Counted from the stretch's first letter, positions 26,040 through 53,161 are shown. The stretch is 64,000 nucleotides of DNA from a virus (IMGVR_UViG_3300028591_000075:96001-160000), one strand, 5' to 3'. Notes: generated from the sequence alone by a model not told the origin. Made by a program: numbers and translations.

Positions 26040-26954
26040 ATGGAATGGATTGTTGAGGACAGCCTTACCAACTTCAACTTTTGGAGCGGAGCAGCCGATA
26101 ACGCCAAGCTGCTGGAATACAGCGAACTGAAAGAACTCGACGAGGCGTTACCGAGTTATTTCGAAGGGCGTACTCCTACCGCGACCGAAATCAACGATTT
26201 GTTCTGGTTCGAGTTTGGGACAGTGTGCTCCCTCATCGGCCTCAAATACGACAAGACCCGTGACGCGGTTATCCGCGGCGACGATGATGAAGGTGATGCC
26301 GAAATGGAATCGGTCGGTACGGACATGAATGCAGTGTTTGAATGTATCCGTAAGGACAATCCGGCCCTCGCCGACGCAATCGAAGCCGGTTACAAGGCGT
26401 GCATGGAAGGTGCCATCGGTGACCCGCATGACCGTTTTGCTGACCACACCTATTCTCCCGATGTAGTGCTGGATGACCAGCCGAACTTCACTGTCATCAT
26501 CTCCACCGATTCCATGGATCCTCATCCGGCCCGTGTGCTGGTACAGGCCCGTGATGAAGCCTCCGCTATTGACGAGGCGGTGGAGTCCCTTGTCGCGCAT
26601 GGCATGTCCGGTTATATCGAGGAGGATGAGCCTGAACACCCGGAAAATTACATCGAAGTGTCCAAGGGTTGGATTCCGTCCCATCTTATCCAGGTAAACC
26701 CACGGACCGGTTCCGATATCCGTACCGCCTATGTTCCCGAGCAGTTCTTGTCCGCCCTCGTAAATGACGACCGAAGCGGGATGAGTTCCGAGGATGAAGC
26801 CGAATTTGAGGCATTCTGTCAAGACCTTGCCGAGGAAGGAATTCCCGAATCCGGCTTGTACCCAGTTTGTGGCCCTGATGGCGAATTCTGGGACGTTGAC
26901 GACGATCCGTACAGCGGAAAGTCTGTTCTCTGCTCGGTGTTTGTCGGTCGCTAA
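26040..26954 (+). CDS. Acidic multidomain protein with an internal copy of the shared leader motif
   Basis: FNFWSGA...TEINDLFWFE domain; EMES-motif-CMEG; C-terminal LSALVNDDRSGMSSEDE domain. Confidence 0.8.
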   Translation: MEWIVEDSLTNFNFWSGAADNAKLLEYSELKELDEALPSYFEGRTPTATEINDLFWFEFGTVCSLIGLKYDKTRDAVIRGDDDEGDAEMESVGTDMNAVFECIRKDNPALADAIEAGYKACMEGAIGDPHDRFADHTYSPDVVLDDQPNFTVIISTDSMDPHPARVLVQARDEASAIDEAVESLVAHGMSGYIEEDEPEHPENYIEVSKGWIPSHLIQVNPRTGSDIRTAYVPEQFLSALVNDDRSGMSSEDEAEFEAFCQDLAEEGIPESGLYPVCGPDGEFWDVDDDPYSGKSVLCSVFVGR

Positions 26955-26963
26955 GGAGTAACC

Positions 26964-28070
26964 GTGAAGGCTCGTAAGATAGCTGGTATTCGTCTCGTCA
27001 ACTACATTGAGGACGGGATTACGTGGAAGTCCCACAAGGACGTTATTCTGGATTTCTGGATTACCAAGAAATGCCAGGAGGCCGGCTATTCCCCTTTCCA
27101 GTTCCGCAACATGTTCCGCGTGGTGCAGCTTCCCACAGCCGCTCAGCAGAAGTATGAGGAATGGTTTAACCACTATGATTTCCAGAACGATACCGACAAG
27201 GACTGGCTGGACTTCGTAAATGGAACGTTAAACCTTTTCTATCATACGTCCGAGCCGAACATTGAGGCTGACGAAACCTGGTTCATTGACCTGATGCAGT
27301 CCGAGGTGGAGGCCCGCGACATCGTTACCGAACAGGTATATCACGGTAGCCCTAACCTCAACGCATTCTGGAAGATCGAAACCAATTCGAAGCCGGAAGA
27401 AGTCGGTGGCCGTCGTAACGGGTACATCTATGTCACCAAGCTGGCTGACCTGAAACCGGCTGATACGCAGGGGTATTACTGGGGAGTTATTTTCCAGTGC
27501 CCGGAAACGGTGAGCCTCGCATTCGATGACGGTGGTACCAAGCGCAGGAAGTGCATTTGCTGGGCGGCTGATGTCAACCACATGACCTTGGTGCGCATCG
27601 GCAGCGATGGACGACTGATGATTGTTCCCGTATTCGTCGAAGGTAAGACCTGGAAGGCCGACCGTTGGATTCCGGAAGGAAGCATCAACCAGAAGCCGAT
27701 GTCCAGCGCGGGGCTATTGAACTACATCAATCAGAATTTCCATCGCCTCTATGGTATCTGGGACCAGATTGATGACAAGGTCAAGAATGTCCGTGAACAG
27801 TCAACTGCTCGTCTTACTGCCGTGAACGTGATGAACGATGAAGAAATCAAGCTGTCAAGGGTCATTGGAAACCTCGACAAGTTCGTCCGCGAAGGTAATG
27901 TTCCCGATGAACGCCGCGAGTACAACAAGGAGGTTCGCCAGAACCTGATGAAGCGGTTGCGCGAAAGGGACAAGGAAGCCAGGGCACAGGTCAGGGAAAT
28001 TGCCAAGGCCGAAAAGCGCAAGGACAAGAACGAACGGTCGAAAATCAATCCTACCATTACCGCAAACTAA
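26964..28070 (+). CDS. Hypothetical protein
   Basis: AAGGAG SD, GTG start, followed by a terminator. Confidence 0.75.
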   Translation: MKARKIAGIRLVNYIEDGITWKSHKDVILDFWITKKCQEAGYSPFQFRNMFRVVQLPTAAQQKYEEWFNHYDFQNDTDKDWLDFVNGTLNLFYHTSEPNIEADETWFIDLMQSEVEARDIVTEQVYHGSPNLNAFWKIETNSKPEEVGGRRNGYIYVTKLADLKPADTQGYYWGVIFQCPETVSLAFDDGGTKRRKCICWAADVNHMTLVRIGSDGRLMIVPVFVEGKTWKADRWIPEGSINQKPMSSAGLLNYINQNFHRLYGIWDQIDDKVKNVREQSTARLTAVNVMNDEEIKLSRVIGNLDKFVREGNVPDERREYNKEVRQNLMKRLRERDKEARAQVREIAKAEKRKDKNERSKINPTITAN

Positions 28071-28076
28071 AAAAAG

Positions 28077-28103
28077 AAAACCACCGGAGAACCGGTGGTT
28101 TTT
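28077..28103 (+). terminator. Intrinsic terminator, possibly bidirectional
   Basis: AAAACCACCGG-AGAA-CCGGTGGTTTT. Confidence 0.85.
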
Positions 28104-28139
28104 AAGTTGGCTGTGTGCCCCCAAAGTATTGCTAGAATA

Positions 28140-28415
28140 ATCCAGATTAACTCCAAGAGGCACTCCATAAACTGATTCGGCGTTCAACACGTGAACGCCT
28201 AACACCGTAAGTTCAAGGATTTTATTAGGCAGTTCTGCGGGCTCGCAACCAAGTATCTGGACAACTATCTCGCATGGCTAAACATCCTACACGTCAACGG
28301 GGATTCCGTAGGAAAGGAAACCCGTTTAGGCAAGATTTGGGCTAGGATGGTGTACCTGCGGAGTCACAGGACTTTCGCCATGCGTCCGGCGATTCCTCTG
28401 GCCGTTGCTGCTTAA
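28140..28415 (+). pseudogene. IS1595-family (ISXO2-like DDE) transposase C-terminal remnant
   Basis: Manual translation ...N*FGVQHVNA*HRKFKDFIRQFCGLATKYLDNYLAW...; in-frame stops at 28173 and 28200. Confidence 0.8.
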
Positions 28416-28419
28416 TGTG

Positions 28420-28878
28420 CTAATTGTCTTCTTCTACCTCGAAGTCTGAAATAGCTGCAGAAATTACTTTCTTTCCTGCAGCAACAGCATTTGGATAGGA
28501 TTTTGAAATATAAAGAACGTCCTCGTATATGTCACGGAACGGTAGTTTGAGTTTGTCATATTTTTCAGCCAGACCGGAGCTTATCCGTTTGTCGTATCCA
28601 GTGCTGCGAGTATCCAATAAGCCAACTGCGGCATATTCAGCATCACTCAACGGTGTACCGTCGTCAGCTTTGTCAATGATATATTCTATCACGGCGGTTA
28701 GATAGTGTGAATCACCGGATGCATTAAACATAGATTCCAGTTTAGCCTTGGTATAGATGACGTTCGATGCCTCACAGAAAGCTTGGAAACCTTCTTGAAG
28801 AATAGGCAGCATATCCATGTGGCCGGATATCTTGCATACACTTTCAAGGAAGGTATTGAATTTTTGTTCTGATTTCAT
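28420..28878 (-). CDS. Hypothetical protein with the N-terminal shared leader; AT-richer
   Basis: KFNTFLESVCKISGHMDMLPILQEGFQAFCEA; AGGAG SD. Confidence 0.75.
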   Translation of the reverse strand: MKSEQKFNTFLESVCKISGHMDMLPILQEGFQAFCEASNVIYTKAKLESMFNASGDSHYLTAVIEYIIDKADDGTPLSDAEYAAVGLLDTRSTGYDKRISSGLAEKYDKLKLPFRDIYEDVLYISKSYPNAVAAGKKVISAAISDFEVEEDN

Positions 28879-28891
28879 TGGTTGTCTCCTG

Positions 28892-29680
28892 TTAAATATC
28901 TAATGTTTCCAAATCACCGTCCGCATCGGCAGTATTGGTTTCCTCACTTGTACCGCCTTCCTCGGCTACCGGTTCGGTACCGACTTCTGTTTCATTACCT
29001 TCTTCTGAGGTGCCTTCCGTAGCACCTTCCTCGGGAGCCGGTTCCTCGGCAGCCCAGTCATCCGGGTTCAGTTCGTTTCCGGAAGTATCTAGTTCGGAAC
29101 TGCCGAAGCCCATCGCGGTTTCATCAAAGCCGTTCGGGTCGGTTGTGGTAATGTCATCGCCAAGCGCATCGAAGGAACCGCTTACCATGGCATCGGAAAT
29201 TTCCTTATCGACGGTAGCTTCCTGGGGGAGTCCATCATCGCCGCTAATGCCGAATACGTTGACGCCTTGGGCTTCATGCGGGTTAGCCCCGACCTTCTGG
29301 CGGAGTTGCTCGGCCACCGTGCTGGACTGGGAGGCTTCGACAAGAACTTCCTTGAACAACTTGGTAGCGGTCTCGGCCAGCACCTGCGGACAGTCGAAGG
29401 AATTAACAAACTTGGCGTAGAAGCCCATCATGGATTCATATTTGGCGGAAACGGGCTTTCCGGCCAGTGCGCGGTCGCATGACTTTACCCATCCTTCGGC
29501 ACGTTCGCCATATACTTCAATTTGGTTCCGTAGGTCAGCGAGCTGGTCAAGCTGTTCCTGGGACAGACTGCCATTGTCGTGCTCCATCCACAGTAGCGCG
29601 TCAATCTGATCGACGAGACCGGAATACCTGGTTTCGGTATTGTCCGGTTCTCCGAATGCATTTTTATTGTCAAGTGGCAT
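28892..29680 (-). CDS. Acidic late protein with an internal shared leader motif
   Basis: TATAAGTC at 29704-29711; KYES..FYAKFVNSFDCPQVLAETATKLFKEVLVEA. Confidence 0.75.
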   Translation of the reverse strand: MPLDNKNAFGEPDNTETRYSGLVDQIDALLWMEHDNGSLSQEQLDQLADLRNQIEVYGERAEGWVKSCDRALAGKPVSAKYESMMGFYAKFVNSFDCPQVLAETATKLFKEVLVEASQSSTVAEQLRQKVGANPHEAQGVNVFGISGDDGLPQEATVDKEISDAMVSGSFDALGDDITTTDPNGFDETAMGFGSSELDTSGNELNPDDWAAEEPAPEEGATEGTSEEGNETEVGTEPVAEEGGTSEETNTADADGDLETLDI

Positions 29681-29771
29681 GGGATTCTCGCAATTTTTCT
29701 ACAGACTTATATCCAAAACGGTACATTTTTTGCTATATTTTCATAAAACAACAAAAACAGGAACTAGAACA

Positions 29772-30308: not shown

Positions 30309-30310
30309 GA

Positions 30311-30333: not shown

Positions 30334-30336
30334 CCC

Positions 30337-31236: not shown

Positions 31237-31269
31237 CCTATAAACTGGAACCTGTAGAGGAAGAACGAC

Positions 31270-32697
31270 ATGGAACTGAGACATAGGCAATTCATCAACT
31301 CGCTTGTTTCGCTTGCTAACGAGAGCAATCGACCGCTTATTGAATGCGCAATCAAGGAATACGTGGTGCTGGAAGGCACCGGCAATTTCTTCAACCGCGC
31401 CAAGGCCCTTGCTGGCAACCTGAAAAACAAGATTGCTGGCTTTGCCGGTGACTCCAAGCAGGCTTATGCCAATACCCATCAGCCGCAGCAATCCCAGCCG
31501 CAGCAGTCGAAAGGAAGCACCTCTGGTCTCAAACAGCGCGAATTTACTCCTCAGCAGCAGAAGGCCAGGGAGTACCTTATTGACAATGACCGCAAAACCT
31601 GGGAGCATGACTACAATCGTTTCTTGCAGGCATGTGATGACATTACCTATTTCTTGAAAACATACGGAAACCGCGAATTCAACCTGATGCGCCAGACACC
31701 CGATTTCAAGAAAGCCGAGAAGCGCGGAACCTTGATGGATGACTATATCAGGGTAAACCCCCAAAAAATTCGCGACGAACACCGTTCTGCATACAGGAAC
31801 ATCATGGACTCGGTATGCAAGATCAGTCCGCAACATCGTGCCCTCGTTGAATCCATATTGTCAATCTATGACATTACCGAAGGTGTTACCCGTCATCGTA
31901 TAATCCCGCTGTGCGAATCCAGCAACAGGGATTATGCGCTTTCTCAGTTGAAGAATGACATGGCCATGGTCGAAGTGTTCGTTACTCGACATGGTATTTA
32001 TCCATGGGAGAAGTTCTTGAAATCCGGCGAGTTCCGCGATGCGTATGTGAACTCCGCTTCGAAGAATCCGACTGAAGAAAAGAAGGCGGCGATTGACCCG
32101 AAAGTGCTGGAAACGGTGCGTAACGCATACAGCTCCGGCTATGGCAGTGCGATGGAAGCGGTCGATGGAAAGATGAAGCAACTGAACAAGTATCTCGGGA
32201 AGAAACCCGACAGCGACATCAAGGATTCCAAGGGATACATCGACACTACGCGCAGGGCGTTTAACTATTTCAAGGATGCCCATATCCAGGAAGGTGCCTG
32301 GGCAGTTCATTTCACCAACGATAAGGCGTATCCCAAAATCAAGAAGAACGGATTTGCCAATGGCACGACCGTACTTGACCACCTGGCTTACACGACCATG
32401 TATGATGGCGGTAGGGGCAAGCAGGGGTGGCTGTTCGCCCTCCCGGTCGGATGCTCTTATCTGAAACATTACGATCTTGGATACGGTGACTGCGCGTTCC
32501 TCATCAAGGCAGATGGAGTTATCGCCAAGCATGTTGGTGAACAGGATGATGAACTCATCTTCCGTGACAAGGATGTGATTAAGAAGATACCTTTCCGCTA
32601 CGATTATGATACGAAAAAGTGGGTAGTCGAGCCGGAAGACGGTAAAAATAAGGCATTTGAGACCATCGGGCAGGTTATCGAGGCGTATCAGAAGTAG
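31270..32697 (+). CDS. Late protein with two shared leader motifs and a C-terminal ADP-ribosyltransferase-like domain
   Basis: TATAAACT at 31239; AVHFTNDKAYPKIKKNGF...GWLFA...YG...EQDDELIF. Confidence 0.65.
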   Translation: MELRHRQFINSLVSLANESNRPLIECAIKEYVVLEGTGNFFNRAKALAGNLKNKIAGFAGDSKQAYANTHQPQQSQPQQSKGSTSGLKQREFTPQQQKAREYLIDNDRKTWEHDYNRFLQACDDITYFLKTYGNREFNLMRQTPDFKKAEKRGTLMDDYIRVNPQKIRDEHRSAYRNIMDSVCKISPQHRALVESILSIYDITEGVTRHRIIPLCESSNRDYALSQLKNDMAMVEVFVTRHGIYPWEKFLKSGEFRDAYVNSASKNPTEEKKAAIDPKVLETVRNAYSSGYGSAMEAVDGKMKQLNKYLGKKPDSDIKDSKGYIDTTRRAFNYFKDAHIQEGAWAVHFTNDKAYPKIKKNGFANGTTVLDHLAYTTMYDGGRGKQGWLFALPVGCSYLKHYDLGYGDCAFLIKADGVIAKHVGEQDDELIFRDKDVIKKIPFRYDYDTKKWVVEPEDGKNKAFETIGQVIEAYQK

Positions 32698-34554: not shown

Positions 34555-34941
34555 ATGGATTTCAAAAAGACAATTTTTGAAGCATGTGTTGCGGTCCCTT
34601 CCATGGGTGACGCCATCGCTGCCGCATATGACTGCATTTTTGAGGCAGATGCTGGAACTGCCCAGACATCATCTACCCAGGTGCAGAATGGCGGTACCAG
34701 TCAAAACGATGTTGCCATCGACCCTGCTGCGATTACGGAAAATCCGGAAAGCGCCAAGATCCTGGCCGATATTGCAACTAAGGCATCCCAGCAGCAACAG
34801 CAGGTCGAGCAGGCCCAGAAGCAACTTGACCAGACCACCGAGGCTGCCAAGACGACGCTCATGGAACTGGACAAGGAACATGATGCCCAGGAAACTCTCA
34901 ACGAGCAAAACCAGAAGCAGATTCCTAATACCCAGGGGTAG
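34555..34941 (+). CDS. Late protein with the shared leader and a Gln-rich coil
   Basis: TATAAACT at 34530; DFKKTIFEACVAVPSMGDAIAAAYDCIFEA. Confidence 0.8.
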   Translation: MDFKKTIFEACVAVPSMGDAIAAAYDCIFEADAGTAQTSSTQVQNGGTSQNDVAIDPAAITENPESAKILADIATKASQQQQQVEQAQKQLDQTTEAAKTTLMELDKEHDAQETLNEQNQKQIPNTQG

Positions 34942-34944: not shown

Positions 34945-35514
34945 ATGGTTCCGGCAATCAAGTATCTTGAATTCATGAAGGGCCTGTTTGAGGCTACCGG
35001 CGACCGTGGTGTGGTGGCCGCTGCCGAGACATTCCGCGCCCTCTGTGAAGGCAACTACTTCCGGCCACTGATGGTTCCGGATTCGATACGGCAGAATGCC
35101 GTCATCGACTGGAAGGGCTTTACCCATATTGTCCCGAGCGCTTCGAACACCTCCGGTACGTCGGCGCCCGATGTGCTTCCCGATGGCGGAAACACCATTA
35201 GCGGCCACTGTACAAGGGATATTGGTGCGGAAACCCGTGAGGCGAAGTGGGAAGTGCCTGACCTGATTTCCGGTGGACAGGTGACCGGCCTCGGAAAGTA
35301 CAAGACGGATGTTTTCCAGTCGGTACCCATTGAAGACATGATTAAGCGGGCACAGGCGAACCTTCCCAATCCGATGGAATGGGCTGTTTCCCTGAACCAC
35401 ATGCCGATGAAGTGCGGCTACTCGATAACATGCCCGAATAACCAGAACGGCGTGTATGCCGGCGACGGTGTCGGTGGTGGTTCTGATTCCGGCGGTGGTG
35501 GAGCGCCATCCTAG
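34945..35514 (+). CDS. Late protein with the shared leader
   Basis: KYLEFMKGLFEATGDRGVVAAAETFRALCEG. Confidence 0.75.
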   Translation: MVPAIKYLEFMKGLFEATGDRGVVAAAETFRALCEGNYFRPLMVPDSIRQNAVIDWKGFTHIVPSASNTSGTSAPDVLPDGGNTISGHCTRDIGAETREAKWEVPDLISGGQVTGLGKYKTDVFQSVPIEDMIKRAQANLPNPMEWAVSLNHMPMKCGYSITCPNNQNGVYAGDGVGGGSDSGGGGAPS

Positions 35515-35515: not shown

Positions 35516-35710
35516 ATGACCAAGCAATTTCTACTACTTTTCATAGCAATCATGATATTCATGGTTGCTTTTGCGTACGAGGCCGGATCGTTGGCAGTCG
35601 CGTCCGATAATATACGCATAGAACACCATGTTGTAAAGGATGGGACCTGGGTGGACACCTCGGCCCCATATAAACTGCCAGAAAAGAAACATTTTTGGAC
35701 ATTGCCATGA
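35516..35710 (+). CDS. Small protein with an N-terminal signal or TM segment
   Basis: MTKQFLLLFIAIMIFMVAFAYEA. Confidence 0.45.
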   Translation: MTKQFLLLFIAIMIFMVAFAYEAGSLAVASDNIRIEHHVVKDGTWVDTSAPYKLPEKKHFWTLP

Positions 35711-37656
35711 ACGAAGAAATCTTTGATAGCATCTCGGACCTGCTTGCCAAGAGCGGCACGACCGTTTCCAAGAAACTGGATGGCTCGATTGTAGTGTCGC
35801 TGCCGGACAGTTCGGAAAAACTCGCCGATTGTACTGACAACGGCGATGGAACCGTTTCCTACACGATGTACCGCGGTGATGATACGGAGGAGGTCGGTAG
35901 CGGCACTCCGGAAGAGTTCAAGGAACATGTGCTTGATGCGCTTGATTCGTGGATTGACTATGTCCCGTATGACCAGTTCGCCGTAGAACCTAATGTTTCG
36001 GTGGAATACCGTCGCGCAATCGGCGAGAGTCGGGATGATGCCATGCGTCGCTCCCTCTTCGAGATGGGGTTGGATTACAACCAGGCCGAGGCGATAATAG
36101 GTGTCGCCAATGCTCTCATGGAATCCGGTGAATATGTATCGGTCAATGTTGATGGAAAGACCATGGAGGGGAGCTCGTTCGAAAACTTGGTTTCGAGAAA
36201 TGAGCCATACCTCACCCGCAAATGGTTGTTGAAGCAAATTAGGGAAAAGAATGTCGATGTTCAAGGCATGGATCTGAAGATGTCGGGAATATCGGCATTG
36301 ACGGAAAAGATTTGGCAGCATGACCATCCAGGCGAGGACTTGGGTGCCCTGTCGCCGGCAGAAAAGACGGCAGAGCTGAACAAGGTTAAGCCAACCAAGG
36401 CGCAGCTTAAAGAATATGTGGAACAATATCGTTCCGCTGCACAGACCCAGACATTCCAGACCGATGATGATGTCCTGGGCAACAATTTCGACAAAAGGAC
36501 AAAGGAAAAGGACACTTCGAAGGATACTGCTCTTCGTGCCGCGGTCTCGGGTAATGAAGATGCCATTCAAAGTGGAGAGGCCGATGACTACGATGATGAA
36601 ATCGAAGGCCATGGCGGTCATCTTGCTGCGAACTACACCGAGGATGGCCGAAAGATTTCCGGTTCAGATGAGGAAGCATCCGCCGAAATCGGTGCTTCGG
36701 TAAAGGAAATCAAAGACCAGGATTCAAATACCAAAACCGATGCACAGCAGCGCATCATAAAAATGCTCGGTGATAAGGGATACAAGTATCCTGAACTGGG
36801 CACACTCCCAATCAAGACCTTGGAGCAGTGCTTGTTTGCGATTAACAAACTTACCGCAAAGAAGAAGTTCAACCTAGATACTGATGCCGAATTGGAACCG
36901 GGCAAACTGCTTCATAAAGCCGGATATACCAAGGATAATGGTCCGAGCGATGAAGATGTTCGCGATGAAATGATGAAAACTTTGTGGGTTGGCGATGTAA
37001 ACTCGCTCAATAGCAAGGAACCGTATGAAATCCCGACTGACTTCATTGCAATGATTGAGGAGAATGCCGAGACACTTAAGAATTCGTTTGACGAATATCT
37101 GGCTATTATTCCGAGATTGCCTCGTGGAACGGCTACCCGGTATGTAATGGATCTCCTGTTTGGTGCTCCGGGAAATGGCGTTGGCGGAATCGTTGGCGGT
37201 ATCTTGAATGGTGACCAGACAATCATGGACAAGATTGCTAAAGGTGAAAGCCTCATTGATGGAAGCTCGATGACGCCGGCTCAGTACAACGGCATTTCGC
37301 AGGCACTGAAAAACGAAGTGCTCAGTAGCGCCATTAGAGCAGTACAGGATAATCTGGGAAATTACATCGACATCATTGTCAGCGGATTGCCCGGTGCATT
37401 CGATGAAGCATGCAACGATAATGTATCCGATTACACCTATGCGGCAATCGATCCGGAATTCGTTACTATGATTCGTTCCATCTTGTTTGGAAAGCAATGC
37501 CCGCTCGCCGGTTATCCATGGAATGCTATCGACACCCTTATCAATGATATTGGTAAGGTAATGACGGTAAGTGCACCATCCGGTGCGCAGCGTAAGATTA
37601 CTGGAACTGTGCCTGGCAAGACCATTAAACCTAAGAAACCAGAAGAACAGTCGTAA
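35707..37656 (+). CDS. Large acidic late protein with an internal shared leader motif; candidate internal head protein
   Basis: TATAAACT at 35669; AIGES-RDDAMRRSLFEMGLDYNQAEAIIGVANALMES. Confidence 0.8.
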   Translation: MNEEIFDSISDLLAKSGTTVSKKLDGSIVVSLPDSSEKLADCTDNGDGTVSYTMYRGDDTEEVGSGTPEEFKEHVLDALDSWIDYVPYDQFAVEPNVSVEYRRAIGESRDDAMRRSLFEMGLDYNQAEAIIGVANALMESGEYVSVNVDGKTMEGSSFENLVSRNEPYLTRKWLLKQIREKNVDVQGMDLKMSGISALTEKIWQHDHPGEDLGALSPAEKTAELNKVKPTKAQLKEYVEQYRSAAQTQTFQTDDDVLGNNFDKRTKEKDTSKDTALRAAVSGNEDAIQSGEADDYDDEIEGHGGHLAANYTEDGRKISGSDEEASAEIGASVKEIKDQDSNTKTDAQQRIIKMLGDKGYKYPELGTLPIKTLEQCLFAINKLTAKKKFNLDTDAELEPGKLLHKAGYTKDNGPSDEDVRDEMMKTLWVGDVNSLNSKEPYEIPTDFIAMIEENAETLKNSFDEYLAIIPRLPRGTATRYVMDLLFGAPGNGVGGIVGGILNGDQTIMDKIAKGESLIDGSSMTPAQYNGISQALKNEVLSSAIRAVQDNLGNYIDIIVSGLPGAFDEACNDNVSDYTYAAIDPEFVTMIRSILFGKQCPLAGYPWNAIDTLINDIGKVMTVSAPSGAQRKITGTVPGKTIKPKKPEEQS

Positions 37657-38216: not shown

Positions 38217-38647
38217 AAAGAAAGAAAACTGTAATAAAGGGTGTTGCGATGGTTTCAGACGAAGAAGCCTGGGCTCGCAATAAGCGCAGCTACAACCTCA
38301 TGGACATTCAGCGCGAAGCGGAAGTCGCCCAAAGCGCACAGGCAATGAATGCCGATGAATTAAAGTATCCGAGTGATTTCTATGCCGTTATGCGATTGAT
38401 GAAGCGTCATGGTGATGTCAAGCTAAGCAAGATACTGGCTACATTCAGTCCACTCGGTTTTATATGCCCGCAGTGTAACGGCACCGGCACGGTCAGGGAA
38501 AAGTATGCCACCGATATGCTTGCCGTTTCAACTGGATGCGCCGACTGGTCATACCGTGATGCCGAGTGCCCGCTGTGCAAGGGTACCGGGGCGGTATCTA
38601 AGAAGTTGAAGCCTAAGATGGTACAGGATGGTTGGGAAGAAGCCTAG
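38213..38647 (+). CDS. DnaJ-type zinc-finger (CxxCxGxG x2) protein
   Basis: CPQCNGTG ... CPLCKGTG. Confidence 0.75.
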   Translation: MKRKKTVIKGVAMVSDEEAWARNKRSYNLMDIQREAEVAQSAQAMNADELKYPSDFYAVMRLMKRHGDVKLSKILATFSPLGFICPQCNGTGTVREKYATDMLAVSTGCADWSYRDAECPLCKGTGAVSKKLKPKMVQDGWEEA

Positions 38648-39971: not shown

Positions 39972-40712
39972 ATGGGTGCAATAACTAACAATATGGGCAT
40001 TTTCGAGACACCGGTGTTTGAGGGATCCACCTCTCATATCGGTGAACGTATCGGCCTTGATGGCAAGCCCGTCAAGCGCCTGATTATCGAAGGTACCGCC
40101 ATCGTCTGTGGAGTGGTCGGTATTAACGGGCGTGACTACCCCCGCGAAATCATCGCCAGGGAAGTCGAACGCCTGAACCGTGACTATGTTGCCTACGGTC
40201 GTCTCGCTGCGGAACTCAACCATCCGCGTCTGGACGAGGAAGGCAAGCCCCGCGACTACCCGATTTTTGAAATGAACTTGAAGAAGACCTGCGCCGTCAT
40301 TGAGGACCTTCACATGGAAGGTGACAAGCTCAAATGCCGCATGGTTGTTGCTGAGGATACTGATGCTGGACACGACTTGGCTGGCCTCATCAAGATTGGC
40401 TATCATCCTGGCTATTCTCTCCGTGGCGCAGGTGATACGGTCAAGAAGGTGAATGCGGTCACTCGCGAAGAATACGAGCAGATTGCCGACAACTACACGA
40501 TGATTACCGTTGATGTAGTTGGCAACCCGAGCTTCGGACAGAGCGCAATCTTCAATGCGAAGCGCGAATCTGTCGAAAAGCCGATTAAAGTCCTCACCGA
40601 ATCAATCAATTCGCTGCGCCGTGAAGTGGCATACAACAGGACCCTGATATCCACCGGGTATCGCAGCTATAACCGTGAATCGCTCATTGGGTACCTGAGC
40701 CAGATGAGATAG
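39972..40712 (+). CDS. gp21: Prohead protease (T4 gp21-like)
   Basis: NGRDYPREI, AELNHP (catalytic His), GYSLRGAG (Ser), VDVVGNPS. Confidence 0.92.
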   Translation: MGAITNNMGIFETPVFEGSTSHIGERIGLDGKPVKRLIIEGTAIVCGVVGINGRDYPREIIAREVERLNRDYVAYGRLAAELNHPRLDEEGKPRDYPIFEMNLKKTCAVIEDLHMEGDKLKCRMVVAEDTDAGHDLAGLIKIGYHPGYSLRGAGDTVKKVNAVTREEYEQIADNYTMITVDVVGNPSFGQSAIFNAKRESVEKPIKVLTESINSLRREVAYNRTLISTGYRSYNRESLIGYLSQMR

Positions 40713-40719: not shown

Positions 40720-41607
40720 ATGGTGCTGGAAAAGATATTGACAGAAGCTGAGATTGGCTCATTGCCAGAAGGTATTGCAGCCAAAATCGAGTCGGACTAC
40801 CAGTCGAGGTTGGAGGCCGGTGTCAAGGCAGAATCTAAAAAGACTGCCGAGAAGTTCTCCAAATTACTTGAATCCGTTAACAACAAAGTTGAAGATAAAA
40901 TCAACGCCGCAGTAGAGTCGTGCATGGCAAACATGCAGACCGATGCTATCAATACCAAGATGTATGCGGCTTTGAAAGGCGTTGCCGCTATTCTTGAAAA
41001 CTCTCTTGGTGTTGACGGATTTGGTGATACACAGACTGTTAAGGACTTGAAGCGTGAATTGGCCAAGGTCAATCTTGAATTGAAAGAGAATTACATCAAG
41101 CATGAGGAACTTACTGACCGTCTCAATAAGGCCAATGCTGAAAAGAAAGTTCTCAATCTTTGCCAGGGTCTTGACCCCAATACGGTCAACAATGTCCTCG
41201 ACCATTTCCGTGGTCATGATGAACGTGAAATCACCAAGGAAACTGTCACTGCATTCATCAACTCTCATCTCATCGATGACCAGAATGGTTTTGTCCTCGA
41301 TGTCGATCCTGATCCGAACGATATCAACATGGACAAGATCCGCAATGCCATCAAGGATGCCGACGATTTCCAGTTGGACTTCAATGGTAACGATGACCCT
41401 GTCCAGCAGAAGCAGACAGCCGCACAGCGCAACTTTGTCGAATCTGTTGGCCGTGGCCTGAAACCGCAGAAAATCGGGCTCCAGGGCACGACTGTCACTC
41501 TCGAATCCATTCGTGAGGAGAATGCCGAACCGGCTGATGACGTTGGACTTGCCATGAAGCAGATGGCTGCCTACGACGAACTGGGCATCGGTGGCCGTTT
41601 CGGGTAG
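40720..41607 (+). CDS. gp22: Prohead core scaffold (T4 gp22-like)
   Basis: Coiled-coil protein after gp21 with many x-x-E-(S/A) sites (LTEA, LLES, AVES, FVES, TLES). Confidence 0.7.
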   Translation: MVLEKILTEAEIGSLPEGIAAKIESDYQSRLEAGVKAESKKTAEKFSKLLESVNNKVEDKINAAVESCMANMQTDAINTKMYAALKGVAAILENSLGVDGFGDTQTVKDLKRELAKVNLELKENYIKHEELTDRLNKANAEKKVLNLCQGLDPNTVNNVLDHFRGHDEREITKETVTAFINSHLIDDQNGFVLDVDPDPNDINMDKIRNAIKDADDFQLDFNGNDDPVQQKQTAAQRNFVESVGRGLKPQKIGLQGTTVTLESIREENAEPADDVGLAMKQMAAYDELGIGGRFG

Positions 41608-44737: not shown

Positions 44738-45484
44738 ATGGATAGAAGTCAAAGGATTTTTACAATGAGCCAAGATAACAAGGTTACGCACTACTCATCC
44801 AAGGTAAAGGCAAGCATGCCCGCGAAGATGCAGCCGGAATTTGATGAGAATGGAAACCAGACCGAACTCTCCATGCTTTATGGCACAATCGACAAGGCAT
44901 ATCTCACGAAACTCCTTGTCGAACACCGCGAGAAGATGCTCCCGTACAAGGCCCTTTGCAAGGAAGTCGGCAAGGAAAAGGCGAAGGAAATTCCTCGCCC
45001 GGTGATGGATCCGCGTCTTGCCAGGATTATCCAGATTGTCATCGAGAAGACTTTGGGTTCCGCCCGTTTCTCGGGATATACTCCGGAATGGAAGGAAGAG
45101 TTCAGAGGCCATGCCTTGCTTCTTGCCTTGAACTACATCCACAACTATGACCCGTCCAAGACGAAGACGGCAAAGAGTAACGACCCGTACAACTACATCC
45201 GCCGCTGCGTGAAGTGCGCGTTCTTCCAGAAGTGGGAGATGCTCAACAAGCGCAGCGAGATGGTCCAGTTCGTTCCGCTTGACGAGGGCATCTTGCACTC
45301 CTGCATCGCGTTCGACCAGTATGCCGGCATGGTGAAGCGCGAGAAACAGCGTCGCCACTGGGGCGCATCCGCGAATGCTGGTCTTACCGGGGACACAATC
45401 GACGAGGCTATCCAGAAGGTCGAGAGGCTGGACAAGGCTGTCGAAGACGACAATGTCCTTCCCGAAGATATGGAACAGTTATAA
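44738..45484 (+). CDS. gp55: Late-transcription sigma factor (T4 gp55-like)
   Basis: IDKAYL, RFSGYTPEWKEEF, YIHNYDPSK..SNDPYNYI..CAFFQ. Confidence 0.85.
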   Translation: MDRSQRIFTMSQDNKVTHYSSKVKASMPAKMQPEFDENGNQTELSMLYGTIDKAYLTKLLVEHREKMLPYKALCKEVGKEKAKEIPRPVMDPRLARIIQIVIEKTLGSARFSGYTPEWKEEFRGHALLLALNYIHNYDPSKTKTAKSNDPYNYIRRCVKCAFFQKWEMLNKRSEMVQFVPLDEGILHSCIAFDQYAGMVKREKQRRHWGASANAGLTGDTIDEAIQKVERLDKAVEDDNVLPEDMEQL

Positions 45485-46558: not shown

Positions 46559-46564
46559 ATTTAC

Positions 46565-46945
46565 TTAGGAATTTGCGTACTTTTCGAGCTTTTGTTTCAG
46601 TCTTGCTTTCAGAGGCGCCTTATCGACCTGTTCAATGGCCTCGCGGAGTGCCTGAACGAAGTCCTTCTTGGGGGTATTCCCGCGTGCTTCTTCGATGACT
46701 TGCATCGGGGTCTTTTCCTTTTCTTCCTGTTTCGGGGCTTCCTGGGTTTCCTGCTTCGGTTCTTCTTTCTTCTCGTCTTCCAGGCCGTACTTGCAGTGGC
46801 CGTTGCAGTCGGGATCGCCGCAGGGGCAGTCGCCGGTTGCTTCGATAATCACCGTCTTCATGCCGGTGATGACACTTTCCAGTACGACACGGTCCTTGAT
46901 CGATGCCTTTGCTTCCTTAAAATACCTATCAAGTTCTTCTTTCAT
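46565..46945 (-). CDS. Late protein with the shared leader and a CPCGDPDCNGHC motif
   Basis: TATAAGTC at 46964-46971; DRVVLESVITGMKTVIIEA. Confidence 0.75.
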   Translation of the reverse strand: MKEELDRYFKEAKASIKDRVVLESVITGMKTVIIEATGDCPCGDPDCNGHCKYGLEDEKKEEPKQETQEAPKQEEKEKTPMQVIEEARGNTPKKDFVQALREAIEQVDKAPLKARLKQKLEKYANS

Positions 46946-47008
46946 CGGGGATACCTCGCCATAGACTTATAGGTTCGACCCGCTAAAACATATAAATCTA
47001 TCGCTGAA

Positions 47009-48634
47009 ATGACGCCGTTCTACTATGTAAGAGAAATCGAGAAGCTGCTTGTCGCCATCTACGACATGTTCGACAACCTGCGCGTGAACAAGTACACTGA
47101 CATGAACCGCACCGAATATGCGGATACGGTCAGGGTCAAGCTCGTGACGCACTATTCGGATGACTTCGCCAACTGGTTGAGCTCCACAATGAGCAAGCAG
47201 CAGCTGCAGGTCCTGCCGGTCGCGGGACTGCGTTTCGTCAGTACATCGAAAGATGACAGCAACCTGGTCCAGCCGACATACGCGAGGGAAATCTATTCCA
47301 GGCGCAACGACTTCTGGATTAGGGACATCCAGCCGAAACCTACCGTGTTCAGGTTCGAACTCACGGTCCTCTCCAACAATTTCTCCGACTTCGCGCAGTT
47401 GAAGGAAAACATTGAACCTTACTTCAACGATTACAGAACGGTCCGCCTGAAAGAATTTGACTTTGCGCCCGAGATTGAACAGCCGGTTCCAATCTTCCTG
47501 GCCGGAGTGAACGACAGTCTTGAAGACGAAACAGACAATACCGGTTCAAAGTTCCAGCAGTACAAGACTACCTACCAGCTTGAAGCCCACGGCCTGATGC
47601 ACAAGCCGTACGCGCTTCCTGCGGAAATCCGCTATGCCGAGATGAACTTCATCGTGAACAAGCAGTACAACGATGTCGAGCAGATCCTGGTGTACCCGGA
47701 CGAGATTGCCAAGCAGAAACGCCGCGCATGGGAAACCGTGGAGCCGTCCATCAGGGAAGGATATTCCCTGTTGAAGACATTTGCCAAGACCCTCGTCCGG
47801 CGCGGCGAGGTTGATGGCGAGGAATACTGGGCAGACGAGACCATCAGGTACGCCATGCTCACATACAACGAGATTAGCGGAGTTGATACTAGCGGCAACA
47901 ACATCGGTACCAACCCAATCTTGAAGGGCTACCAGAGGGACGAGAATGGCGAATACGTCCTCGATGCTGATGGTGACCGCATTCCGATTTACGACTGGGA
48001 ACAGGTCATTGTCGATGACATCGAACGTCCTGCGGAGGTGCCGTCTTTCGACCTTATCCATCTCACGTTTGATGAAGACAGCCCGGTTGCGACTGACATG
48101 AGCGGTCTAGGCCGAGACTTCGTTGCAGTGAATGACGATACACGCAAGTTCATTCCGGGACTTCCTCCGGGAAACGGAACGAATACCGATGGCGGTTATG
48201 TATATGACACACCGACCGGTGACGATTCCAGGCTTTATTGGTCCCAGATTCTGAACTGGTTCGGCGATAACAAGGAAGGCACAATCGAGAGCCCGTACAC
48301 CTTCAAGGCTACATTGCAGTTCCATGAAAGTGTTCCGGGTGATACGCTGTTCCAGTATCTGTACAACCCGAACGAGGTGACCCTTGAAGACGGTACGGTG
48401 ATACCCGCTGAAAGCGTATGGTTCGACTGGGGCGTGATGGACAGCAAACTGTATTTCACCTATCACACCACGACCCAGAGTCGGACGTTCGAGACGGAGA
48501 CATTTGAGTTCGACAACCAGATGATTTATTCATTCTACTTCGTGCTGTATGACCATGGCAAGAAGGGTATATTCGGCGTGAAGACCAACCTCAACGATAC
48601 CATGGTGGCGTTGAAGACCGTGGAGGTTGACTAA
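47009..48634 (+). CDS. gp15: Tail sheath terminator (T4 gp15-like) with a C-terminal LamG-like extension
   Basis: FYYVREIEKLLVAIYDMFDNLRV, LPVAG, PTVFRFEL, QLKENIEPYF; TATAAATC at 46991. Confidence 0.8.
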   Translation: MTPFYYVREIEKLLVAIYDMFDNLRVNKYTDMNRTEYADTVRVKLVTHYSDDFANWLSSTMSKQQLQVLPVAGLRFVSTSKDDSNLVQPTYAREIYSRRNDFWIRDIQPKPTVFRFELTVLSNNFSDFAQLKENIEPYFNDYRTVRLKEFDFAPEIEQPVPIFLAGVNDSLEDETDNTGSKFQQYKTTYQLEAHGLMHKPYALPAEIRYAEMNFIVNKQYNDVEQILVYPDEIAKQKRRAWETVEPSIREGYSLLKTFAKTLVRRGEVDGEEYWADETIRYAMLTYNEISGVDTSGNNIGTNPILKGYQRDENGEYVLDADGDRIPIYDWEQVIVDDIERPAEVPSFDLIHLTFDEDSPVATDMSGLGRDFVAVNDDTRKFIPGLPPGNGTNTDGGYVYDTPTGDDSRLYWSQILNWFGDNKEGTIESPYTFKATLQFHESVPGDTLFQYLYNPNEVTLEDGTVIPAESVWFDWGVMDSKLYFTYHTTTQSRTFETETFEFDNQMIYSFYFVLYDHGKKGIFGVKTNLNDTMVALKTVEVD

Positions 48635-49302: not shown

Positions 49303-49337
49303 GGAACTAATTTTATAACAAAAAGGAAGATACCATA

Positions 49338-49955: not shown

Positions 49956-50080
49956 AATGCCTACTATAATTTTTGTTGTCGTGGTCATTGTTGCCGGAGC
50001 GCTATTCTTCAATCATAATGATTGGGGTAGCTTCCGGTAGGCATCCGATATAAACTGCCGATGTATAAAAGAGGTTCGCT

Positions 50081-50563
50081 ATGAATTCCGTTAGTAAAAA
50101 AATCCTTACCGAAGCAGCCACCAAGATTACGGGCGATCCACTGGTTGCAAAGCGTGTCGCCCTCATGGTTGCTCGTATGGAAGCTGCGGATGGAAAGGGT
50201 GAATCCTTCTCTACCGTGAAAGAGCTCTCCAACTGGCTGCTCGATGAATCGAACGGTCTCAACAAGATGCACTGGGGAGTGGACAAGATGAACAAGCACA
50301 CTCTCCTCGAAGAAGCATACGACCTTTGCCGCGACACCGGCGACAAGTTGGCGGAAACCTATGTTTCCCTTACCGGAAAGCCGGCTGCCGATGTGAAAGT
50401 CGATGACGAGACCGTCATTGCCAAGCTCAAAGAACTTCAGTCCCACATGAACGATGCCGTGGCCAAGAACAGTAAGTTCCCGGAAGGGCTGAAGAACATT
50501 TTTGCCGATTTTGATGAGAAAATTACCGGCATTCTTTACAAGTACCAGCAGTTTAACGGATAA
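50081..50563 (+). CDS. Ferritin/Dps-like four-helix protein behind a leader-like segment
   Basis: HWGVDKMNKHTLLEEAYD...DKLAETY; TATAAACT at 50049. Confidence 0.7.
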   Translation: MNSVSKKILTEAATKITGDPLVAKRVALMVARMEAADGKGESFSTVKELSNWLLDESNGLNKMHWGVDKMNKHTLLEEAYDLCRDTGDKLAETYVSLTGKPAADVKVDDETVIAKLKELQSHMNDAVAKNSKFPEGLKNIFADFDEKITGILYKYQQFNG

Positions 50564-50614
50564 TTTGTAGCCGGTACATCCATTTTCGTATTATATTTCC
50601 TCAGAGGTACCTCG

Positions 50615-51196
50615 ATGAAGATGACCGACATCATGGCTGCTCAGAAGGAAGAAATGCTCCGGCACAAGTGGATTGAGTCGGAAAAGGCCGGCCATGACCT
50701 CGGCGATTCCGTTATGGTCCAGTGGACCAAGGAACATGGCGCCGGGTGGCGATACAATTTCAATCTCGAACATCTGATGGAACTTCCCGAAGGCGACCAC
50801 GCCGTCTACTTCGGCATTTTCCTTGATGAGAAGTCAAAGAAAATTCTCATCGACACGATGTCCAAGTTCGTCCCATCCGGCTGGGATTTCAAGTGCGACA
50901 GATGCACACTGGCATTCGGTAACCCGGACGACCACCCTGATGTGAAGGAATATATCGCGGCAAACCTGGGCAACAAGGTGAAAATGAAAGTCGATTCAAT
51001 CGGCGTAGCAGTCGAGGTATTTGCCGTAGGTGTTACCGGTGACTTCAAGTCCACCATTGAACGACCGCACATCCCAGTTGCCGTGCCGCCCGGCGGCCAT
51101 TCAAAGAATTCAAACTTTATCAAGACGTGGAAGGACTATGCGCCAAAATTTGAACTCACTGGCACAGTCGATACCTTCCCCCGAATGTTTACATGA
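50615..51196 (+). CDS. DUF4032-like N-domain fused to a 2H-phosphoesterase-like domain with degenerate HxT motifs
   Basis: HKWIESEKAGHDLG; YFGIFLDEKS...CDRCTLAF...PHIPVAV..GG..KNSNFI. Confidence 0.6.
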   Translation: MKMTDIMAAQKEEMLRHKWIESEKAGHDLGDSVMVQWTKEHGAGWRYNFNLEHLMELPEGDHAVYFGIFLDEKSKKILIDTMSKFVPSGWDFKCDRCTLAFGNPDDHPDVKEYIAANLGNKVKMKVDSIGVAVEVFAVGVTGDFKSTIERPHIPVAVPPGGHSKNSNFIKTWKDYAPKFELTGTVDTFPRMFT

Positions 51197-51582
51197 CAAG
51201 AGAAATCGTAACAGAAAAATTCGCCGAGAATTTCGACACTGAGTACGTCTCGCGTGATTTCCCCCTAATATCGGCCATGTGTGCCAAGAATGACTACACT
51301 GGCTGCTACATCCTGAAATTGGTCACCGGTGAAGGCGTTGTCGCGATGGGCATCGTCGATCCGGACGGCTATCCGTTGAATACGAAGCTATGCGCGTTCG
51401 AGGTCAGGCACGATTGCCGTCACAAGGGATACGGCAAGGAACTCCTACAATACATTCTAATCAACTATGATGATGTGCGTGCCGTAGTATTGAGAGAAGC
51501 ACTCGGGTTTTACCGCAAGTGCTTCTTCAAGGTAATCGATGATAACGGCGGACAGGTGGTCACGGTCGAGGCTATTGCCTAG
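51193..51582 (+). CDS. GNAT acetyltransferase
   Basis: FEVRHDCRHKGYGKELL...ALGFYRKCFF. Confidence 0.85.
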   Translation: MTREIVTEKFAENFDTEYVSRDFPLISAMCAKNDYTGCYILKLVTGEGVVAMGIVDPDGYPLNTKLCAFEVRHDCRHKGYGKELLQYILINYDDVRAVVLREALGFYRKCFFKVIDDNGGQVVTVEAIA

Positions 51583-52045
51583 TCTTTCCGATAGGGTACT
51601 TCTGGGCCATTTCCCTGGTAGTCAGGTACATCAGTTTCTCGAACTCGTTCATGTTGTTGAACTTGATGATTTCCTTTTCCAACAGCGGATTGAATTTCCT
51701 GATATGCTGCCATTGCTGCTCGTCGCGCATGGCCTTTGCTGGATTTCCCTGCGCGATGATTGGCTGGACGAAGCATCCGGTCGGGTGCTTGGGACGGGCC
51801 TCGGTCTCGACCGTGGCGTCATTGTAGGAAGGATCGATGCACAGCGCGGGATCGCGGTCGAACGCGATGTCGGCAAGCTGCATGATGAATTCGGCAAACT
51901 CGTACCCGACAAGGTTCCCGAGGGACCTCATGGCGACTTCGGTATCGTCACCGGCAACCTCGAATATGCGGATGATTGTATCCGTCAGGTCCGGGTTGTT
52001 CGTTGTTTTGAATACGCTGACGCGCAGTAGCTCGATTGGTTCCAT
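51572..52045 (-). CDS. Late protein with a leader-like N-terminus
   Basis: Start moved to ATG 52045, after the palindromic late box; LLRVSVFKTTNNPDLTDTIIRIFEVA. Confidence 0.65.
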   Translation of the reverse strand: MEPIELLRVSVFKTTNNPDLTDTIIRIFEVAGDDTEVAMRSLGNLVGYEFAEFIMQLADIAFDRDPALCIDPSYNDATVETEARPKHPTGCFVQPIIAQGNPAKAMRDEQQWQHIRKFNPLLEKEIIKFNNMNEFEKLMYLTTREMAQKYPIGKTRQ

Positions 52046-52052
52046 ACCTGGA

Positions 52053-52064
52053 AGTTTATAAACT
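52053..52064. promoter_or_regulatory. Palindromic bidirectional late promoter AGTTTATAAACT
   Basis: Perfect 12-bp palindrome with TATAAACT on both strands; ATGs 6 and 7 nt away. Confidence 0.8.
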
Positions 52065-52070
52065 GCTGGC

Positions 52071-52832
52071 ATGGACGCCAAGTATATCACACGCGATGAC
52101 ATGGTCCGCCGTATCATTTCCAGGATGGGTGGCCAGTGTCAGGAAATTGAAATGGTCGTGGAGGAAGACCGCGGTCTCGGTCATGTCCACATGGCTATCG
52201 AGGACACCGAGGACTTCTTCTACCGTTATTGTGTGGACGAGGCCCAGTATATCGACCTCATGGTCCTGCATCTTCTACCGGGTGTCATGGAATACCGTGT
52301 ACCGGACAACGTGGTCAACGTTATCGAGGTAAACCCCAGCTACGGCAATACCTTCTCCCCGATGATGGCCTGGGACGTGGGTCCGGGTGAATCCCTGATG
52401 GGTGTCGGCGGTGCCGGTCTTGGCGGCCTGGGCCAGTTCGACCTCATAACCTACTCCGGTGCGTTGCGCTACTTGCAGGATGTCAAGAAGCTGGTCGGTA
52501 CCCAGTATCACATCAAGTTCCACCCGACGGACCACCTCCTGAGGATCTACCCGACCCCGAGGTCCAGGACGAATGCTGTTGCCGAGGTGTACTTGAAGGC
52601 CAAGAAATCCGAGCTCTACAACAACATCCTCTTCCGTGACATGGCCTTTTGGCGTGCCCAGGAACAGCTCGGTATCATCTTGAAGAAGCATACCTTTACG
52701 ATGCCCGGTGGCCTGACCATCAACGGTAAGGAAATCTTTGACACGGCTGCCGCCCGTCTCGAAAAGCTGGAAGCAAGGGTTATCAGCGAAGCGCCGGGCG
52801 CATTCATGATGACGGATTTGTCCGGAATATAA
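52071..52832 (+). CDS. gp13: Neck protein (T4 gp13-like)
   Basis: RRIISRMGG..IE, EYRVPDNVVNV, QLGIILKKH..MPGGLTINGKEI. Confidence 0.88.
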   Translation: MDAKYITRDDMVRRIISRMGGQCQEIEMVVEEDRGLGHVHMAIEDTEDFFYRYCVDEAQYIDLMVLHLLPGVMEYRVPDNVVNVIEVNPSYGNTFSPMMAWDVGPGESLMGVGGAGLGGLGQFDLITYSGALRYLQDVKKLVGTQYHIKFHPTDHLLRIYPTPRSRTNAVAEVYLKAKKSELYNNILFRDMAFWRAQEQLGIILKKHTFTMPGGLTINGKEIFDTAAARLEKLEARVISEAPGAFMMTDLSGI

Positions 52833-52861
52833 GCTGTAGTAAAACATTATGGAGTTTAACG

Positions 52862-53161
52862 ATGGAATTCAAAGATCGTATGGTTAAGTTTGACGACTTC
52901 CTCACCAAGTTTGCAAAGGCTAGTGGCGCTTCGGAATTGTGTGAATCTGTTCGCGAGGCGGCAAAGGTGTGTTTTGAAGGTCTTGACACCAATCCGCCTT
53001 GGGCTGATCCGGGTCTTATTGATCCGAAGTACAAGAACAACTTGGTCGCAAGTTCCAATGAAATCCATCGCAAGGTCTTCCATGACATTCCGCTGGCCAG
53101 GTACAAAGCCCGCTTGAAAGCTAAGAAAGCTAATGATGCCTGTGCCGAAACCGTACAGTAA
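52862..53161 (+). CDS. Small late protein with the shared leader
   Basis: TATAAGCT at 52828; KFDDFLTKFAKASGASELCESVREAAKVCFEG. Confidence 0.8.
   Translation: MEFKDRMVKFDDFLTKFAKASGASELCESVREAAKVCFEGLDTNPPWADPGLIDPKYKNNLVASSNEIHRKVFHDIPLARYKARLKAKKANDACAETVQ

Follow-up and report, generated by a model that had tools for sequence, protein, structure and literature searches.

A portable two-helix tag ending in a T4 gp21-like glutamate site on late proteins of an uncultured T4-like phage, a candidate capsid-loading leader

Why should otherwise dissimilar late proteins of one phage share a segment of about 30 residues? The question arises in a 64,000-nucleotide stretch of viral DNA (the window; bases 96,001-160,000 of an IMG/VR viral record of 253,312 bp, hereafter G000), where an earlier note had described a helix-turn-helix tag, usually ending in hydrophobic-x-Glu and then a small residue, on about 12 proteins encoded between positions 26,040 and 53,161. 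The tag had been read as a device that loads varied cargo into the phage head, where the phage's own prohead protease would release it for injection. Gene names such as 26040+ are window coordinates, and coordinates marked 'genome' count along the whole G000 record. The present analysis indicates that, at the level of sequence, the tag family is real for its core members, and that it probably represents, with appreciable room for doubt, an enlarged leader of the type of the T4 capsid-targeting sequence (CTS), which loads a protein into the capsid and is then cut.

All ten segments that had been quoted as strong copies were found in the genes named for them. A hidden Markov model (HMM) built from these ten was compared with decoys consisting of the reversed proteome and five shuffled proteomes, whose best matches scored 2.4-3.5 bits. 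The same model picked up genes on which it had not been trained, namely genome 12383+ (26.9 bits), 92456- (16.8), 10122+ (15.8), 981+ (11.3) and 73048+, and HMM searching extended the family by six tagged genes elsewhere in G000. A six-frame scan of the whole 253-kb genome with the iterated HMM yielded 18 copies in 16 proteins, all at 16.9 bits or more; every match lay in a coding frame, the next one reached only 6.7 bits, and reversed or shuffled proteomes topped out at 4.2 bits. The motif is significant against shuffled controls, with extra members recovered and a clean gap below 16.9 bits. The last 104 kb of G000, which hold small early-type genes and fibre genes, contain no copy.

Because the HMM had been trained on the earlier note's own segments, stricter tests were run. 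In leave-one-out, where same-protein copies and the tandem paralogue were also left out, 13 of the 18 copies scored above every decoy, seven of them at E < 1e-3. Models made only from the tags of distant relatives gave 47-56 bits for three members of the Cys-rich subtype (type A, described below) and about 5-11 bits for 35707+, 92456-, 26040+, 52862+, 34555+, 73048+ and 981+, with decoys at or below 4.3. One or both of these tests back 28878-, 26040+, 52862+, 35707+, 34555+, 34945+ and the internal copy of 31270+. The carriers are indeed otherwise dissimilar: once the tags had been removed, blastp at E ≤ 1 among the tagged proteins gave two trivial matches only. That the shared segment reflects chance resemblance, or functionless remnants of old duplications, is very improbable and for the core members effectively refuted. 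Two copies, 29680- and 46945-, do stay at decoy level in leave-one-out, but members outside the training set score 16-56 bits against decoys of 5.2 or less, 152 database proteins match at E ≤ 1e-3, and the tag is conserved even in genomes where prohead protease identity falls to 53-59%.

Along the window, the 304-residue protein 26040-26954 (+) carries an internal type-B tag at residues 95-124 (26322..26411, +; ...KACME|G; 34.9 bits, 25.0 in leave-one-out and 9.6-12.2 with distant-relative models). An N-terminal type-A tag begins the 152-residue protein 28420-28878 (28768..28854, -; ...AFCE|A; 35.8 bits) and scored 47.2 bits with a type-A model from distant relatives only. Two copies occur in the 475-residue protein 31270-32697 (+). 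The internal one, at residues 178-205 (31801..31884, +; ...DITE|G; 24.2 bits), reached 9.5 bits in leave-one-out against a best decoy of 1.9, whereas the N-terminal one (31288..31377, +; ...VVLE|G; 21.3 bits) holds up through its likeness to the internal copy and not otherwise; across 17 homologues no change is seen at R21, L23 or E25 and hardly any at E35 and G36. The adjacent proteins 34555-34941 (128 residues; 34558..34647, +; ...CIFE|A; 30.6 bits) and 34945-35514 (189 residues; 34969..35052, +; ...ALCE|G; 26.6 bits) both have N-terminal tags, the former scoring 8.7 bits with a distant-relative type-B model (decoys at most 4.3) and kept in four orthologues, the latter scoring 5.7 bits in leave-one-out against a best decoy of 2.7 and likewise kept in orthologues. 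In the 649-residue protein 35707-37656, an internal type-B tag at residues 113-140 (36043..36126, +; ...ALME|S; 26.8 bits, and 11.2 with a distant-relative type-B model) is better conserved among orthologues than the rest of the protein. The 99-residue protein 52862-53161 has an N-terminal tag (52895..52981, +; ...VCFE|G; 31.6 bits, 16.0 in leave-one-out).

The copies proposed with less confidence fared unevenly. An atypical tag near the N-terminus of protein 51572-52045 (51956..52018, -; ...RIFE|V), listed before as a weaker copy, is supported at 20.3 bits and 8.2 in leave-one-out, and its open reading frame is kept in two relatives. Two candidates fit the pattern and gain no independent statistical support: an internal one in the 262-residue acidic protein 28892-29680 (29333..29413, -; ...VLVE|A), with 16.9 bits only when in the training set and 1.8 bits in leave-one-out, and an N-terminal one in the 126-residue protein 46565-46945 (46838..46927, -; ...VIIE|A), with 25.9 bits when self-trained and 1.4 in leave-one-out, which is conserved in orthologues. 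The weaker copies suggested at 50081+ and 538- were detected by no model, and clade-wide HMM iteration recovered neither these two nor 46945- and 29680-. The Dps/ferritin-like late protein 50081-50563 (phrog_858; weak Pfam Ferritin and DUF5856 matches), once put forward as a tag carrier, has a 36-residue N-terminal extension ending ARMEA|A, tag-like in layout, yet no tag model detects it.

The tag is about 30-35 residues long, comprising two predicted helices and a turn. Its first helix often reads [KY]-x-x-F-[MLI]-E-[SGA]-V; the turn is short (G-L-S or N-C-P-E), and the second helix ends [AV]-[C/I/L/F]-[M/F/C/L]-E-[G/A/S]. Type A is Cys-rich (...FMESVC.EFNC....P.L.EGF.AFCE[AS]) and type B follows ...IFME.VG.LGLS..Q..A.......C[FLM]E[GAS]. 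When 34 tags from six genomes were aligned, no column but that of the terminal Glu was invariant; the residue after this Glu (P1') was G, A or S in 139 of 145 unique tags (96%), and the residue two before the Glu (P3) was C, I, L, F, Y, V or M in all 145. The T4 cleavage sites in NC_000866 are FIAE|A, KLE|A and ITE|A, and the tag ends DITE|G, VIIE|A, ALME|S and ACME|G obey the T4 site rule as sequence patterns. The invariance of the Glu together with its P1' and P3 neighbours bears out the proposal of a T4-gp21-like site at the end of the tag. The segment might instead be no more than a pro-region or linker that the protease removes, or act as an intramolecular chaperone, with head loading achieved through other features. 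Such a role would suit a tag whose sole invariant residue is the junction Glu, and a homologue with just a 12-residue leader ending FLEG, but a bare site would not need some 30 conserved residues in a two-helix layout, and we consider this explanation unlikely.

An AlphaFold2 (AF2) model of the 26040+ family, made from 20 sequences with a mean predicted local distance difference test score (pLDDT) of 77, contained a confident N-domain (residues 10-78), a disordered acidic linker (81-94), tag helices at 92-106 and 108-122 (pLDDT about 55-76), a low-confidence stretch of about 16 residues starting at E123|G124 and a confident C-domain (140-304, pLDDT 84-93). Because the model puts the two helices between disordered linkers, the tag is predicted to behave as a separate helical hairpin with its conserved end in an exposed linker. 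For 31270+ the mean pLDDT was 48, and the secondary structure again gave two helices per tag, at residues 3-14 and 21-35 with low confidence for the N-terminal copy and at 164-185 and 187-204 for the internal one. A fold search with the 31270+ model was dropped, its pLDDT being too poor.

A protease that may read such a site is encoded in the window. The gene at 39972..40712 (+) specifies a prohead maturation protease of the T4 gp21 family (phrog_207, E 4e-33) that aligns to the T4 gp21 structure 5JBL, its sole solved-structure match, and is only ~30% identical to gp21 of T4-like phages. Residues H84 and S149 are invariant in 22 orthologues and align to Ala positions in crystallised T4 gp21 (PDB 5JBL); we take the Ala at both positions to represent an inactivating mutant. 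Next to it, 40720..41607 (+) encodes a 295-residue scaffold-like protein in the gp22 position, assigned from its location and from being kept beside the protease in relatives. This protein has four h-x-E-[AGS] sites by motif count and no family match in PHROG and Pfam scans. The head region gave no megablast match to cultured phages, while 30 related metagenomic loci were found, with protease identities to G000 of 53-96%, two of them in complete genomes of 419-422 kb with terminal repeats. The G000 phage (GC content ~51%) is an uncultured T4-like phage that has no close kin among cultured phages.

The tagged genes also have their promoters in common. The most enriched 7/8-mer upstream of gene starts was TATAAACT, and 33 of 48 TATAAAC copies lay within 80 nt of a gene start. 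This late box stands directly ahead of 7 of the 16 tagged genes, compared with 27 of 216 other genes (Fisher p = 0.003); in the window it occurs at 25999..26006 (+), further at 31239, 34530, 35669 and 52057 (+), and at 52060 (-). In an eighth tagged gene, 52045-, the ATG lies 15 nt behind the palindrome AGTTTATAAACT, and its start codon is confirmed by the late box that the palindrome contains. Four further tagged genes are operon members behind a late box, and three lie behind the variant box TATAAGTCT, found in the window at 29703-29711 and 46963-46971 (both -). The claim that each tagged gene follows a late box, directly or in an operon, accordingly stands for 15 of the 16 when operon members and the variant box are counted, and fails for genome 92456-, which has only AATAAACT upstream. 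Among relatives, a late box accompanies 16 of 29 tagged open reading frames, most often 32-42 nt ahead of them; the background density of the box is 0.27 per kb. Together with the T4 gp55-like late sigma factor encoded at 44765..45484 (+; phrog_234, E 8e-14), the box association predicts that the tagged genes are expressed late, alongside the head genes. The late box can be read on either strand of the palindrome itself (52053-52064), and genes start divergently 14-15 nt away, at 52071 (+) and 52045 (-), which suggests a late promoter that is compact, works in both directions and leaves very short leaders; the gene that starts at 52071 (52071-52832, +) encodes a head-tail adaptor and precedes the tagged gene 52862-53161.

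Scanning related phages recovered tags in their genomes as well: five relatives carry ten, nine, four, three and four matches, and two of these genomes are complete (419-422 kb). An exhaustive profile search of 1.84 billion representative proteins at a cut-off of E ≤ 1e-3 returned the 152 matches mentioned above, of which 146 were re-confirmed; P0206 (a TALE-like repeat protein) and P0216 (a Cys-rich repeat protein) were rejected as unrelated false positives. The tag is N-terminal in 121 of the 146, for the most part at residues 7-40. Where it is internal, its distance from the N-terminus is 90-260 residues, or up to ~520 in a few database proteins. The cargo of the database matches falls into ~81 clusters without mutual blastp similarity, 72 of which hold proteins of at least 90 residues.

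Homologues of 26040+ illustrate how tag and cargo recombine. Some have the arrangement seen in G000, an N-domain, a type-B tag and a C-domain; in P0183 and P0184 (49-50% identity) an N-terminal type-A tag is joined to the C-domain at the identical junction; in a third arrangement the N-domain has a different tail and is untagged. The 700-residue P0044 resembles a polyprotein, with a type-A tag, the C-terminal domain of 31270+, a tag remnant (...EGLSALCEA|D) and a further domain, and L022 and L026 share a common tag and then diverge. In one relative, G001, the protein encoded directly upstream of the protease has a 35-residue tag, whereas its G000 homologue (genome 76111-77085, -; 32% identity) has the 12-residue leader MLQKRLRTFLEG; the two align exactly at the E-[AG] junction. 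The same cargo with different tag subtypes, the same tag with unrelated cargo, and both N-terminal and internal positions together confirm that the tag is portable. The 76111-77085 protein and its G001 homologue (L015:8940-9680) also share a CxC...CxH motif with a weak SWIM zinc-finger match (E 0.17), and in both G001 and G002 the gene for the CxC...CxH protein lies immediately upstream of the protease gene.

The clearest exchange of cargo was seen beside the terminase. Downstream of the large terminase gene (genome 8270-10096, outside the window), G000 has two tandem type-A tagged genes, 12383 and 12800 (genome 12383-13237), whose DNA sequences agree almost completely between the ribosome-binding site and codon 38 (...CEA) and are unrelated from there on. 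In three other strains identity amounts to 93-99% for the flanking 110-residue gene and to 90% or more for the leader, and one or two cassettes are present with cargo of 176, 227, 216 and 260 residues. Except for one shared piece, the cargo in these strains is unrelated mutually and to that of G000. The locus is a hypervariable cassette site at which flanks and leader are kept and cargo is swapped between strains, and this strain-level turnover is the single observation that argues for host-interaction roles. A leader at least 90% identical over unrelated cargo is also not what a simple pro-region would require, and therefore points to a common binding partner.

That partner need not be part of the head. 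The tag could be a recognition leader for a modifying enzyme like those of ribosomally synthesized and post-translationally modified peptides (RiPPs), for a chaperone or for an export route, with no involvement of the capsid. The three conserved Cys of type-A tags and the hydrophobic or lipobox-like stretch after some tags would fit such a role. We nevertheless regard it as quite unlikely: no candidate partner enzyme was seen beside the tagged genes, which are dispersed and have late promoters as their only shared feature; cargo of up to 500 residues is unlike RiPP precursors; and the end of the tag suits the cleavage preference of the only protease family with a known role in processing head proteins.

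The closest precedent, as had been proposed, is the T4 CTS, with its shared leader, Glu site, gp21-family protease and polymorphic cargo. In internal proteins that otherwise vary widely the CTS alone is conserved, and it loads foreign proteins (PMC3012670; PMC5694885); its sequence is given as MKTYQEFIAE (PMC8442874), to which the tag has only a loose likeness, K-x-Y-x-x-F-h-x-E. In T4 the leader is found on IPI, IPII, IPIII and Alt and is removed by gp21. As there, a short conserved leader precedes otherwise unrelated late proteins and ends in hydrophobic-x-Glu and then a small residue, a gp21-family protease is encoded nearby, here with catalytic His and Ser kept, and strain-polymorphic cargo genes have a constant leader (PMC3012670 for T4; the cassette locus here). 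The tag differs in being ~30-35 residues long and a predicted hairpin, compared with 10-19 residues in T4, in also occurring internally between domains, in having at least two subtypes, and in scale, with 16 proteins in one genome and ~80 database cargo groups against three or four proteins in T4.

Giant phages offer a second comparison. phiKZ, 201phi2-1 and SPN3US put long N-terminal propeptides on head and ejection proteins, cut at A/S/G-x-E by gp175/gp245; their paralogues with conserved N-termini have been termed 'reminiscent of T4 CTS', there are several sites per propeptide, and one ejection protein has a transmembrane helix directly after the propeptide (PMC5694885; PMC10052503). The system predicted here would share with them a cut behind Glu, the relationship of the protease to that of T4 and the large number of internal head proteins. 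The phiKZ-type propeptides differ in their length of 111-254 residues, in the lack of a single portable module common to unrelated proteins, and in a P3 residue that is Ala, Ser or Gly rather than C, I or L. G000 further differs from these phages in its T4-type genes for the late sigma factor, the portal (genome 22628-24340), a gp23-type capsid protein (genome 20945-22435; PF07068; both outside the window) and a gp3-like sheath stabiliser (47009-48634, from the PHROG scan). The protein encoded at genome 20225-20839 (-) has a tag-like N-terminus and then a hydrophobic stretch ending in a lipobox-like L-x-x-C-A-G, and database protein P0260 has two full tags, each followed by a hydrophobic lipobox-like stretch; a comparable layout is that of the ejection protein SPN3US gp47, in which a transmembrane helix follows the propeptide. 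Finally, the coat-binding helix-turn-helix of the P22 scaffolding protein (PDB 2GP8) is a hairpin of ~40 residues that docks a protein inside the procapsid. The predicted tag superposes on it at 2.1 Å over 38 residues (Z 4.3), a fit that dozens of unrelated hairpins equal, and the P22 domain differs in having no sequence similarity, in being C-terminal and in remaining uncleaved.

On the favoured CTS-like reading, the tagged proteins would be made late, and their helical hairpin would attach them to the prohead core as it assembles. The presumed reader, the T4-gp21-type protease (39972-40712), would then cut after the invariant Glu and free the downstream cargo inside the capsid, and internal tags would split a polyprotein. 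That the proteins bind the core, are cleaved and stay in the head is what we infer from these patterns; the same holds for any injection or function directed at the host, and the 'injected effector' is the weakest part of the reading. A bolder version, in which the hairpin serves throughout the clade (genome records of about 200-420 kb) as a position-independent 'address label' that docks flanking polypeptides on the prohead core, is cut by the protease and so brings dozens of fast-changing cargo proteins, and polyproteins, into the capsid for delivery with the DNA into rumen bacteria, is put forward tentatively, as an idea that we would sooner doubt than assert.

Several results weigh against the CTS-like reading or its effector part. 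Tag HMMs scored T4 IPI, IPII and IPIII at 3.4 bits or less, so that the tag is classed here as CTS-like and not as a member of the CTS sequence family because homology to it is not detectable. The commonest residue at P3 is Cys, compared with Leu or Ile in T4, and, as noted, 29680- and 46945- score at decoy level. Three database proteins of ~350-410 residues, P0190, P0192 and P0230, carry a complete type-A tag, including an MNTYQK start, at the extreme C-terminus; because only 3-4 residues follow the tag, cleavage would be pointless there, though targeting fits, and these may be fused gene calls or real C-terminally tagged proteins without cargo. A word-indexed search with single-linkage clustering merged many proteins into one family with a variable-length N-terminal part and an internal tag, and this family is weaker evidence of modularity than it first appeared. 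When every tagged protein and ten cargo proteins from the databases were scanned against Pfam and PHROG, the cargo fell into no family, and the 26040+ model returned no meaningful fold from Foldseek against the PDB (best E 0.036, TM ≤ 0.2) or from a wide VIA-align search (best Z 5.9). Lastly, most cargo is acidic (isoelectric point, pI, 4-5) and often of low complexity, whereas T4 internal proteins are basic, and some tagged proteins may for that reason be parts of the prohead core and not injected effectors.

The earlier labels for the cargo (ART-, ankyrin- and ferritin-like) were likewise not borne out, the tagged cargo having no Pfam or PHROG match. For 'ART-like', which was dropped, the protein atlas gave only sub-threshold PARP/Arr leads (0.87), and the profile of the 31270+ family found no match among PDB sequences.

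The acidity of the cargo bears on a structural alternative, in which the tagged proteins are components of the prohead core or 'inner body', the hairpin is an assembly or oligomerisation module, and the cleaved products are mostly degraded and expelled or left as acidic internal peptides resembling the T4 gp67/gp68 products. Many cargo parts are not only acidic but also D/E/Q-rich and of low complexity, a number of tagged genes are grouped close to those for the portal, protease and scaffold, and in G001 and G002 the gene that directly precedes the protease carries the best-scoring tag. Seven A-[VL]-x-E-S sites occur in an untagged protein of 591 residues encoded near the portal gene, at genome 27594-29369 (-), which matched no family; it may be a core or scaffold component that the protease would break down into small fragments. 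On the other side, strain-level swaps of unrelated cargo between conserved flanks and ~80 cargo groups would both be unexpected of core components, and the C-domain of 26040+ is predicted to be well folded, conserved and globular. We judge this alternative improbable, if less so than the others considered here.

Should the CTS-like reading be correct, the capsid targeting known from three or four T4 proteins would be a strategy that large uncultured phages use generally and on a much larger scale, in this clade by way of a longer, structured tag that can also act between domains, and a hypervariable locus that differs between near-identical strains would be explained. The tag would then be a sequence handle for picking virion-delivered proteins, likely counter-defence or host-takeover factors, from metagenomes, and would add another, independent tag with which foreign proteins could be put into phage capsids. 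If the address-label version were true, this would be a natural reprogrammable protein-delivery system on a scale far above that of T4. Even with structural cargo, the tag would define the protease substrates of a new jumbo-phage lineage.

The surroundings of the protease gene provided some further observations. After the scaffold gene, 42317-44722 encodes an 801-residue protein with an immunoglobulin-like stretch that matches virion structural and head-decoration PHROGs, and no capsid-protein family match was found for it. In G000 the gp23-type capsid gene and the portal lie ~115 kb from this gene, and in the relative G003 the genes for portal, capsid, protease, scaffold and the homologue of the 801-residue protein are contiguous. 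Just upstream of the prohead-protease operon is an SprT-like metalloprotease gene (38644-39678, -), which has a late box of its own. Ahead of 12 mostly non-structural genes of the genome stands another motif, TTGCTATA(TT), for example around window position 29730 and upstream of the window genes 7252 and 29772; it may be an early or middle promoter.

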